Positions 39,657-42,724 of a stretch of DNA of 64,000 nt are shown piece after piece (position 1 is the stretch's first letter; each line of letters begins with the position of its first letter). The notes below the pieces were generated by a model. It worked only from the letters and a program-made list of their open reading frames with translations, made no database searches and had not been told where the DNA came from. The DNA is from Eledone cirrhosa (lineage: Eukaryota). The translations under genes and the position numbers were made by a program. Location: contig OZ024741.1 of the NCBI GenBank assembly GCA_964016885.1, positions 253,270,001 through 253,334,000 of the forward strand. Reading direction: 5' to 3'.

Positions 39657-42600
39657 ATATAAAGGACGTAAAATAAGAAAATTTTTTTTTTTTAAATTTT
39701 TAAAAAAAATTTTTATCTTACTTAAATTTTCACTCCAACTAATTAGTTTCTGCAATGGGATAAAGACAGTTATGTAATCCAACTGTCGAGAATTCATTGC
39801 GTCATCAGGAAGTCTATTCTCAGTTAAGTCTCCAGGCAATGCGCGGACACTGGCGGCTCATATAAAAATAATAATAATTCGGTAGATTGAACAGCTTGCG
39901 AGGACTGGATTCTATGTACCGAAATTCTCACTGCTTCAAGTCAAATGGCCGATTCTAAAGAATCAATCACGTGACACAGAGGCTAGTTAGAAGGAATGGG
40001 ATGGTAAGATGACTGACGCCTACTAACACCCCAAAAAAAATTTCTTTAGAAGTGGTTTTGACAAGTTTGCTCGACAAATCAGTGATTTGGAGATAAATAT
40101 AGATAATTTAATATATCAACTAACATAAGCGCACAGATGCACGCCCATGCCAGCAAATACACAGGTTATGAGCCGCCAGTGTCCGCGCATTGCCTGGAGA
40201 CTTAACTGAGAATAGACTTCCTGATGACGCAATGAATTCTCGACAGTTGGATTACATAACTGTCTTTATCCCATTGCAGAAACTAATTAGTTGGAGTGAA
40301 AATTTAAGTAAGATAAAAATTTTTTTTAAAAATTTTTTAAAAAAAAATTTTCTTATTTTACGTCCTTTATATTATTGTTCTGCATTCTCCTGCATTGAAC
40401 CACCTAGGTACTATGACATAACCTGTGTATTTGCTGGCATGGGCGTGCATCTGTGCGCTTATGTTAGTTGATATATTAAATTATCTATATTTATCTCCAA
40501 ATCACTGATTTGTCGAGCAAACTTGTCAAAACCACTTCTAAAGAAATTTTTTTTGGGGTGTTAGTAGGCGTCAGTCATCTTACCATCCCATTCCTTCTAA
40601 CTAGCCTCTGTGTCACGTGATTGATTCTTTAGAATCGGCCATTTGACTTGAAGCAGTGAGAATTTCGGTACATAGAATCCAGTCCTCGCAAGCTGTTCAA
40701 TCTACCGAATTATTATTATTTTTATATGAGCCGCCAGTGTCCGCGCATTGCCTGGAGACTTAACTGAGAATAGACTTCCTGATGACGCAATGAATTCTCG
40801 ACAGTTGGATTACATAACTGTCTTTATCCCATTGCAGAAACTAATTAGTTGGAGTGAAAATTTAAGTAAGATAAAAATTTTTTTTTAAAAATTTTTAAAA
40901 AAAAAAATGTTCTTATTTTACGTCCTTTATATTATTGTTCTGCATTCTCCTGCATTGAACCACCTAGGTACTATGACATAACCTGTGTATTTGCTGGCAT
41001 GGGCGTGCATCTGTGCGCTTATGTTAGTTGATATATTAAATTATCTATATTTATCTCCAAATCACTGATTTGTCGAGCAAACTTGTCAAAACCACTTCTA
41101 AAGAAATTTTTTTTGGGGTGTTAGTAGGCGTCAGTCATCTTACCATCCCATTCCTTCTAACTAGCCTCTGTGTCACGTGATTGATTCTTTAGAATCGGCC
41201 ATTTGACTTGAAGCAGTGAGAATTTCGGTACATAGAATCCAGTCCTCGCAAGCTGTTCAATCTACCGAATTATTATTATTTTTATATGAGCCGCCAGTGT
41301 CCGCGCATTGCCTGGAGACTTAACTGAGAATAGACTTCCTGATGACGCAATGAATTCTCGACAGTTGGATTACATAACTGTCTTTATCCCATTGCAGAAA
41401 CTAATTAGTTGGAGTGAAAATTTAAGTAAGATAAAAATTTTTTTTAAAAATTTTTTAAAAAAAAATTTTCTTATTTTACGTCCTTTATATTATTGTTCTG
41501 CATTCTCCTGCATTGAACCACCTAGGTACTATGACATAACCTGTGTATTTGCTGGCATGGGCGTGCATCTGTGCGCTTATGTTAGTTGATATATTAAATT
41601 ATCTATATTTATCTCCAAATCACTGATTTGTCGAGCAAACTTGTCAAAACCACTTCTAAAGAAATTTTTTTTGGGGTGTTAGTAGGCGTCAGTCATCTTA
41701 CCATCCCATTCCTTCTAACTAGCCTCTGTGTCACGTGATTGATTCTTTAGAATCGGCCATTTGACTTGAAGCAGTGAGAATTTCGGTACATAGAATCCAG
41801 TCCTCGCAAGCTGTTCAATCTACCGAATTATTATTATTTTTATATGAGCCGCCAGTGTCCGCGCATTGCCTGGAGACTTAACTGAGAATAGACTTCCTGA
41901 TGACGCAATGAATTCTCGACAGTTGGATTACATAACTGTCTTTATCCCATTGCAGAAACTAATTAGTTGGAGTGAAAATTTAAGTAAGATAAAAATTTTT
42001 TTAAAAAATTTTTTAAAAAAAAATTTTCTTATTTTACGTCCTTTATATTATTGTTCTGCATTCTCCTGCATTGAACCACCTAGGTACTATGACATAACCT
42101 GTGTATTTGCTGGCATGGGCGTGCATCTGTGCGCTTATGTTAGTTGATATATTAAATTATCTATATTTATCTCCAAATCACTGATTTGTCGAGCAAACTT
42201 GTCAAAACCACTTCTAAAGAAATTTTTTTTGGGGTGTTAGTAGGCGTCAGTCATCTTACCATCCCATTCCTTCTAACTAGCCTCTGTGTCACGTGATTGA
42301 TTCTTTAGAATCGGCCATTTGACTTGAAGCAGTGAGAATTTCGGTACATAGAATCCAGTCCTCGCAAGCTGTTCAATCTACCGAATTATTATTATTTTTA
42401 TATGAGCCGCCAGTGTCCGCGCATTGCCTGGAGACTTAACTGAGAATAGACTTCCTGATGACGCAATGAATTCTCGACAGTTGGATTACATAACTGTCTT
42501 TATCCCATTGCAGAAACTAATTAGTTGGAGTGAAAATTTAAGTAAGATAAAAATTTTTTTAAAAAATTTTTTAAAAAAAAATTTTCTTATTTTACGTCCT

Positions 42601-42724
42601 TTATATTATTGTTCTGCATTCTCCTGCATTGAACCACCTAGGTACTATGACATAACCTGTGTATTTGCTGGCATGGGCGTGCATCTGTGCGCTTATGTTA
42701 GTTGATATATTAAATTATCTATAT
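39657..42724. mobile_element. Retrozyme-like array: ~4.6 near-identical 558-bp monomers (+) preceded by ~0.9 inverted monomer, one hammerhead per monomer
   Basis: ATGAGCCGCCAGTGTCCGCGC recurs at 40168, 40726, 41286, 41844 and 42402. The inverted arm is 39657-40170. Both ends lie in (TA)n. Confidence 0.93.
40216..40297 (+). ncRNA. Type I hammerhead motif of the 558-bp monomer (also 40774, 41334, 41892, 42450 on +; 39732-39813 on -)
   Basis: ACUUC-CUGAUGA-CGCAAUG..(GACAGUU/AACUGUC hairpin)..CAUUGCA-GAAA-CUAAUUAG-UU/GGAGU. It includes the 12-nt palindrome AACUAAUUAGUU. Predicted cleavage is after 40292. Confidence 0.85.

Follow-up and report, generated by a model that had tools for sequence, protein, structure and literature searches.

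In the published accounts, non-LTR (LTR, long terminal repeat) retrozymes of animals are non-coding, AT-rich, dispersed tandem arrays with one type I hammerhead ribozyme per unit, and they coexist with Penelope-like elements (PLEs). Their monomers range from 51 to 972 bp, and they have already been interpreted as non-autonomous PLE derivatives, based on co-occurrence and on similarity to PLE pseudo-LTRs (pLTRs) (Li, Clavereau and Pollet 2026, bioRxiv 10.64898/2026.07.22.740005). A tail of 30-40 nt at one end is a known mark of PLEs (PMC8557442; PMC3846280). In vitro, a Penelope-like enzyme cut and extended both DNA strands, and reverse transcription started at two internal RNA sites bounding the tail (PMC11167929). 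Circular templates have been proposed for more-than-unit copying (PMC4209133). Here, we analyzed a stretch of 64,000 nt from Eledone cirrhosa (assembly GCA_964016885.1, contig OZ024741.1, positions 253,270,001 to 253,334,000; called the window below), which contains a tandem array of 558-nt hammerhead units at 39657-42724. The family of this array is likewise non-coding, AT-rich, dispersed and tandem, with one type I hammerhead per unit, and its insertions end at two fixed sites that follow the PLE rule.

The unit, numbered with 41285 as position 1, contains two TATAT sites 118 nt apart, site A (202-206) and site B (320-324). Ends were mapped at 38 loci obtained with a 511-nt unit query (the window included) and at 12 head-to-head loci from the hammerhead pattern list; a tail-to-tail locus (L169) was excluded, and L050, with an older separate copy, was counted as single-arm. 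All 82 3' ends from these 50 loci fell at A or B and continued into (TA)n, or in some loci into (CT)n and then (TA)n. The 18 single-arm loci had an A end in 11 cases and a B end in 7, and in every head-to-head locus (32/32) one arm ended at A and the other at B. An unselected check relied on a genome-wide search for exact junction words, which gave 298 for A and 545 for B, the A word being narrower. On chromosome C1, which was fully listed, 47 A and 87 B words formed 30 head-to-head pairs within 20 kb, comprising 16 A-B, 14 B-A and no A-A or B-B pairs, plus one same-strand B-B pair; some C1 loci were shared with the first 50-locus set. The mark described for PLEs, two alternative 3' ends bounding a tail that is found at one end of inverted structures, was present in 32/32 loci and 30/30 C1 pairs. 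The earlier note, made on the window from its letters, had the array starting and stopping within a unit and anticipated dispersed copies with permuted ends; the dispersal was borne out, but the points at which the array ends are not arbitrary, and permutation was rejected for the 3' ends.

The predicted fold of a circular monomer left A and B largely unpaired. The unit contains four TATA/ATAT clusters, of which only the two predicted to be unpaired serve as ends, the two unused ones lying inside stems. Two hairpins in the 118 nt between A and B were kept across 15 sequences, with modest covariation. At several long (B-type) ends, (CT)n runs of 10-46 nt were found directly at the end (L140, L149, L151, L159, L162; L204, L208, L215, L219), where the template reads CTCT or TCT. 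These runs may be either compound targets or the result of slippage repeat addition at initiation, as a telomerase-related enzyme might perform.

The layout of the array in the window is as follows.

39317-39661, no strand: (TA)n tract, left part of the inferred target; it also borders a different hammerhead repeat ending at 39319
39657-40170, minus strand: inverted arm, 514 nt or 0.92 unit; 3' end at site A into (TA)n, 5' end at unit position 251
39732-39813, minus strand: hammerhead copy within the inverted arm, core CTGATGA at 39808
40167-40170, no strand: TATG/CATA 4-nt microhomology at the head-to-head joint, overlap of the two arms
40167-42724, plus strand: main arm, 2,558 nt or 4.58 units; 3' end at site B
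40167-40724, 40725-41284, 41285-41842, 41843-42400 and, partial, 42401-42724, plus strand: units of the main arm
40216-40297, plus strand: first plus-strand hammerhead (type I minimal, Penelope-type), palindromic stem III at 40281-40292, predicted cut behind GUU after 40292 (unit position 126)
40774-40855, 41334-41415, 41892-41973 and 42450-42531, plus strand: further hammerhead copies
40368-40372, plus strand: site A, TATAT, the family's short 3' end (unit position 202-206), predicted to be unpaired in a circular monomer
40373-40485, plus strand: the tail separating A and B, with one short and one long predicted hairpin kept across subfamilies
40486-40490, plus strand: site B, TATAT, the family's long 3' end (unit position 320-324); the end of this array lies at 42720-42724
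42720-42836, no strand: (TA)n tract, right part of the inferred target; the (TA)n run was called from 42705

The coordinates upheld an inverted arm joined via TATG and both array ends in (TA)n. The inverted arm was 99% complementary to the main arm, whose units measured 558, 560, 558 and 558 nt followed by a 324-nt partial, in agreement with the earlier count of about 4.6 head-to-tail copies of 558 bp. Units had been said to differ only in homopolymer length; run-length differences in A/T were indeed found, but unit 2 also carried one substitution (G at 40909). The longest stop-free stretch was 99 aa (two-unit piece, six frames), consistent with the absence of a credible open reading frame (ORF), and the GC content of the unit was 36%. 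One type I hammerhead with a palindromic stem III occurred per unit, five on the plus strand and one on the minus strand. Downstream of each core (CTGATGA at 40221, 40779, 41339, 41897 and 42455 on the plus strand and at 39808 on the minus strand) came GAA, then the palindrome AACTAATTAGTT and then GGAGT.

As a type I hammerhead, the motif consisted of stem I (ACUUC/GGAGU), the core CUGAUGA, an unpaired C, a stem II opening with G-C, an unpaired A, GAA, and a stem III inside the palindrome AACUAAUUAGUU, with GUU as the cut site. The base of stem II adjoining the core was a C.A mismatch, followed by G-C, with no Watson-Crick closure. Stem II was two-part and about 50 nt long, and the palindrome was 12 nt long. 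In a comparison of 19 subfamily sequences, no variation was seen in the core, the unpaired C and A or the palindrome, except for C in place of core U4 in 1/19. The six pairs of proximal stem II were paired in 100% of the same sequences, and changes on both sides were found at 7/16 stem II pairs (counts that ignore relatedness). The stem II pairing and covariation score exceeded those of 500/500 shuffles and of all slid controls, and the number of pairs changing on both sides was matched or beaten by 8/500 shuffles. The palindrome gave no fold alone and was predicted to pair between molecules at -10.8 kcal/mol; two motifs were predicted to co-fold with an intermolecular stem III, and a single motif folded at -19.8 kcal/mol. 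The dimer-type hammerhead of the earlier note thus matches a fold under structural constraint, in which stem II covaries and the palindrome is predicted to pair between, not within, molecules. A dimer-dependent ribozyme is also described for amphibian retrozymes.

The features listed for minimal PLE hammerheads (PMC4209133) were found in the motif, namely the conserved core, a nucleotide between 9 and 10.1, G10.1-C11.1, a palindromic 15.2-16.2 and compensatory changes. It matched those hammerheads apart from a second invariant extra nucleotide (A) before G12, a longer palindrome and the two-part stem II. A Rfam search of 36000-46000 returned no family matching the array at E<=1, Hammerhead_1 included, so that the Hammerhead_1 match proposed earlier as a check was not obtained.

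To characterize the template, variants were scored in 222 unit pieces from 38 loci over 456 columns. Among variants covered by at least two pieces, 23 were fixed through the array, 33 were found in a single unit, 4 were partial and none was arm-specific. Five of the 23 array-fixed variants were private to one locus, three of these across both arms, and none of the 33 single-unit variants was common to two loci. At the polymorphic position 90, the arms agreed in 19/19 young loci (10 with A, 9 with G). Stem II could be compared between the strands at all 39 loci where both carried motifs: 29 showed the same sequence, 9 showed slight differences inside one subfamily, and 1 pair consisted of two separate insertions. 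The cut site was crossed without indel in 179/179 cases. A pile-up of 5' ends at the cut site, as expected for a linear monomer, was not seen, with 1/64 of them within 2 nt of it.

These variant, haplotype and crossing data therefore indicate that the enzyme passes the cut site, and that each insertion seems to pass a one-unit bottleneck and then to re-expand. A ligated circle probably accounts for both properties, whereas an uncut multimer accounts for the passage only. Of the earlier proposal that a multimeric transcript cleaves itself to monomers or circles and that the array was written by rolling-circle copying with a Penelope reverse transcriptase (RT) in trans, Penelope-like insertion was retained, and for the template the evidence favors one monomer read repeatedly.

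The genome contained many elements encoding RT and GIY-YIG (10,596 first-look GIY-YIG candidates, 150 of them scored), and most of those read had the cysteine linker typical of Neptune or Nematis (not placed on a tree). The autonomous families likewise had two kinds of 3' end, a short one and a long one spaced by about 40-70 nt, which led into (TA)n. One autonomous RT and GIY-YIG family of the Neptune type had 5,349 exact hammerhead words in the genome; of its 22 head-to-head loci, 18 were short+long, 1 was long+long and 3 had lost an end (18/19 scorable). Because this autonomous family also follows the one-of-each rule and a tail at one end is in print as a PLE mark, the array is very likely a product of PLE machinery, in line with the Penelope-like insertion proposed earlier. 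The window also contained, at about 51900-52400, 3' fragments in head-to-head order that belong to an autonomous Neptune-like family; one has a long end and the other a short end. In addition, the 3' regions of L070, L081, L093, L103 and relatives, read by eye, showed autonomous families with hammerhead-like motifs in which the core was U3-A8 and the palindrome ACCGGU; in some of them, the G12-A13 positions were changed. A U3-A8 hammerhead core has been described (PMC4209133).

Neither the array nor the sequence joined to 346 hammerhead copies (117 loci, biased towards the best matches and the start of C1) contained an RT or GIY-YIG frame or other coding sequence, and the array was accordingly rejected as an autonomous PLE with RT and GIY-YIG between pLTRs. 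A comparison of 50 GIY-YIG loci with the unit gave two matches only, L103 and L087; both were rejected as partner pLTRs, being older members of the array's repeat inserted beside PLEs. A search for a shorter-stem variant gave 229 matches, mostly part-matches to family members among the 100 listed, and the 30 loci examined from this search had no adjoining ORF. The family is thus in all likelihood non-autonomous, with a rare autonomous form possible given the locus bias.

Further marks of PLE insertion were found in the arms and flanks, including variable 5' truncation, the inverted 5' arm, microhomology joints and a microsatellite target. The 64 arm 5' ends from head-to-head loci were compatible with a uniform distribution (Kolmogorov-Smirnov p 0.24). 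Joints of the 32 head-to-head loci, read approximately from BLAST ends, had a 1-5-nt overlap in 19, 0 nt in 6, 11-12 nt in 2 and extra bases in 5. The longer arm was the A arm in 13 loci and the B arm in 19, and the longest arm reached 6,317 nt, about 11 units. Single-arm 5' ends were concentrated in an A/T hairpin at 140-195 (8/17, p 1e-4; L060 was omitted for an assembly gap at its 5' end). Among the single-arm loci, L041, L046, L047 and L050, all B-ended, had a common 5' end at position 143 of this hairpin, an arrangement that would equally fit a very short inverted arm with its end close to site A.

A microsatellite was found within 40 nt in 197/229 distinct array flanks (14 duplicates and 1 edge dropped), and the other 32 had no PLE coding match. 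Since the same locus-specific impure TA pattern occurred on both flanks in several loci, the (TA)n target pre-existed the insertion. A possible long target-site duplication was seen at L053:3250-6900, where the two flanks carry the same compound (TA)n(GA)n pattern; elsewhere, any such duplication would be hidden by (TA)n. At L061:3489-5615, an inverted Neptune-like joint had an array at its center, and the TA surrounding this array amounted to only about 30 nt.

The host is identified as an octopod by an 824-aa frame at 31479-33956 on the minus strand, encoding a cadherin-repeat protein 90% identical to an Octopus bimaculoides protocadherin, in keeping with the cephalopod suggested earlier. 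The 511-nt query gave 177 matches in the 40 scored of 558 candidates, on many chromosomes, with 95-100% identity among the 150 matches listed, which agrees with recent and dispersed copies. Two disjoint hammerhead patterns had 3,899 and 4,581 exact matches, that is, 8,480 in the genome, and reversed patterns had none, so this abundance is not due to chance and the number of hammerhead copies in the family is 8,480 or more. The stem II word present in the window was counted 271 times. Monomers measured 500-609 nt in 161/161 cases (117 loci; only motif spacings of 480-620 nt were counted), and every subfamily sampled formed 500-600-nt tandem monomers. Size, diversity and these identities therefore indicate, at the level of sequence, a family that is old and diverse and a subfamily in the window that is very young. 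Many variant unit pieces were also found in short-read contigs of public runs (run type unrecorded, possibly the same sample), and a few low-depth ones in read contigs from two other organisms. The family may already have a name in Repbase or Dfam-type repeat libraries.

Under the broad 2026 definition of a retrozyme (bioRxiv 10.64898/2026.07.22.740005), which admits canonical or minimal hammerheads, the array qualifies, with five consecutive plus-strand units, each having a complete type I hammerhead, no coding sequence, dispersed copies and coexisting autonomous PLEs. The monomer, considered unusually long in the earlier note, lies inside the range reported there. From the narrower 2020 definition (Cervera and de la Pena, PMC7229834), which also comprises self-cleavage and the expression of linear and circular RNA monomers, it departs in hammerhead type and size: in place of a canonical type I motif with typical helix sizes there is a minimal PLE motif, whose stem II is long and bears the C.A mismatch, and the units exceed 150-450 bp, although the GC content is below 50%. 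The unit had no similarity to the pLTRs of the sampled PLE families, a minority of those in the genome. The (TA)n targeting, two fixed ends and head-to-head arms of the array family were not found in the accessible parts of these two accounts, nor was the A/B end rule found for any retrozyme in the literature seen, including the accessible parts of PMC3088659 and PMC8490949.

With PLE pLTRs and their tail (PMC3846280; PMC8557442; PMC11167929), the family shares a hammerhead upstream of two alternative 3' ends, a tail on one end only, the 5'-truncated inverted arm, the microsatellite target and the microhomology joints. Unlike them, it has no ORF, its tail is 118 nt instead of the 30-40 nt in print or the roughly 40-70 nt of the autonomous families of this genome, both its ends match the target by TATAT, and its arms are multimers. 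Non-autonomous Chlamys elements such as MRC1 are likewise PLE-type with multicopy head-to-tail insertions, but their 3' end resembles that of autonomous partners and their clade is without canonical hammerheads (PMC8557442), whereas no partner similarity was found for the array family.

We consider the array to be a young insertion of a non-coding hammerhead family, likely written in trans by a Penelope-like, probably Neptune-type, RT from one 558-nt RNA that is predicted to be self-cleaved and likely circular, a reading that as a whole stands at about an even chance. For it, we infer transcription, cleavage, circularization, the priming chemistry, the number of RNA molecules and the identity of the enzyme. 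A tandem array would be transcribed, and two hammerheads would pair by the 12-nt palindrome and cut after GUU, the monomers then being ligated to circles, as the structure and other retrozymes suggest. A GIY-YIG endonuclease would nick both strands of a (TA)n tract, the target seen at the loci, and the free ...TATA-3' ends could prime on the RNA, with A used by one end and B by the other, which would produce the observed ends and their pairing. Each cDNA would extend variably, with strand displacement and often for several laps across the cut site, as suggested by arms of up to 6.3 kb with seamless unit joins. Finally, the cDNA ends would be joined head-to-head at 0-5-nt microhomologies, as read at the joints, or a single arm would be joined to the target. 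In the window, the A-primed arm would be the one of 514 nt and the B-primed arm that of 2,558 nt.

In L1 twin priming, both target strands prime, which gives rise to an inverted structure with a microhomology joint, as proposed here. It is mentioned in PMC2837659. The array family differs from it in that each of the two starts has a fixed internal position, a single sequence is copied by both arms over several laps, and the joints are not at A or B. As a tentative extension, on balance doubtful, this twin priming might be obligatory and asymmetric, with both nicked (TA)n strands priming on one circular RNA at its two unpaired UAUAU sites and the RTs circling up to ten laps or more.

Several points weigh against the circular-RNA reading. 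Stem II of the hammerhead starts from the C.A mismatch, and the predicted cut site is GUU. Because minimal motifs cleave weakly even as dimers (PMC4209133), and 8/9 Xenopus retrozyme dimers were uncut (bioRxiv 10.64898/2026.07.22.740005), the activity of the predicted motif may be low; moreover, insertion in vitro did not require cleavage (PMC11167929). The covariation counts were made without correction for relatedness. Assembly polishing may exaggerate the homogeneity of arrays, and the concordance of arms could come from one active source locus per cell instead of one molecule. Of seven older head-to-head loci, five were clean A+B, one stopped 35 nt before B at a TA-like spot and one was at neither. 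Further, no autonomous partner was found, the 14 downstream regions of sampled PLE loci scoring no higher than local shuffles.

Alternatively, in a Penelope-type insertion of the same kind, priming may occur at a single site; the first cDNA or an antisense template would then fold back or prime itself to give the inverted arm, and the second fixed end would result from endonuclease resolution. Published proposals invoke self-priming to explain head-to-head PLE structures (PMC3846280) and resolution by the endonuclease to explain the tail (PMC8557442), and fold-back would account for identical haplotypes in both arms. We regard it as rather unlikely: either arm can be longer (13 and 19 of 32 loci), and therefore neither site is always first; cutting a copied-back strand at any TATAT should give A+A or B+B, seen in 0/32 and 0/30; the joints are mostly 0-5-nt overlaps with no long palindromes; and mapping in vitro placed RT starts at each end of the tail (PMC11167929). 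The template might also be an uncut linear multimer from an existing array, the hammerhead being weak or dispensable and no circle formed. Seamless crossing of the cut site fits this equally well, unprocessed RNA was the main substrate in vitro (PMC11167929), the core looks weak, and homogeneous donors would yield homogeneous daughters. Private variants in every unit at 5/38 loci and single-unit variants common to no two loci argue otherwise, since a one-unit bottleneck and re-expansion are therefore needed; arms reaching about 11 units, and a core, palindrome and stem II pairing kept through many subfamilies, likewise make an uncut template unlikely.

That the unit is the pLTR of an unsampled autonomous PLE family, its arrays being pLTR multimers and not an independent parasite, appears improbable. 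Its anatomy is that of a pLTR (a hammerhead, then two ends bounding a tail), the genome has many PLE families (150 of the 10,596 first-look candidates were scored), and of about 8,500 hammerheads the context was seen for only 346. In 117 loci, however, the unit did not continue into any RT or GIY-YIG sequence, and at five loci with PLE coding pieces within 1.4 kb these were TA-separated from the array or belonged to other families (as read by eye for L045, L047, L154 and L169, and as judged by the flank for L063). The flanks, with 197/229 microsatellite and the other 32 lacking a PLE coding match, and the tandem monomers of 500-600 nt in every sampled subfamily also speak against it. Least probable by far is a DNA-level satellite spread by unequal exchange, or an assembly artefact. 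Although the run-length differences between units resemble long-read errors, the copies are scattered over many chromosomes, combine two fixed ends with varying 5' ends, include inverted arms, and show RNA-structure covariation. Against an artefact, variant unit pieces also occurred in the short-read contigs of public runs.

Other features were noted in the window. A second, unrelated hammerhead repeat with 467-nt units, a short palindrome and a weak HH9 match (Rfam, below the gathering score) was located at 38108-39319. It is head-to-head, its arms measuring about 1.5 and 1.1 units and differing in their 3' ends, which lie 69 nt from each other, and it borders one common (TA)n tract with the 558-nt array. 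Hammerhead motifs of other families with a palindromic stem III were found at 12832, 34412 and 37713 on the minus strand, at 59982 on the plus strand, and at 27533/27673 and 53781; some of them recur in the genome beside PLE frames or within short tandem repeats. The array lies 5.7 kb upstream of the protocadherin coding exon (31479-33956, minus strand), with the inverted arm on the strand of the gene. A broken RT fragment followed by a PHD finger match was present at 44149-45631 on the plus strand, and no link to the array was made.

In the literature within reach (subscription papers and repeat libraries were not), we found no report of a cephalopod retrozyme or a cephalopod or octopus hammerhead, and no paper pairing retrozymes with twin priming. 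Retrozymes as Penelope parasites, the tail and the monomer size were already known; the fixed A and B ends and the one-of-each rule on a retrozyme appear to be new. The link between retrozymes and PLEs in print rests on shared ribozymes, co-occurrence and pLTR similarity, whereas here a retrozyme itself carries the Penelope insertion signature. The origin of tandem and inverted PLE structures has been described as undefined (PMC8557442). If obligatory twin priming holds, the 'optional' tail would be the fixed spacing between two start sites, and a 558-nt non-coding RNA would serve as a minimal substrate, provided by nature, whose copies document the entire reaction thousands of times in one genome. 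From the thousands of copies, the strict short+long rule and the one haplotype per insertion, sharp predictions follow that apply to a small RNA substrate in the in vitro assay already established, and octopods are added as a system with several co-existing hammerhead families.

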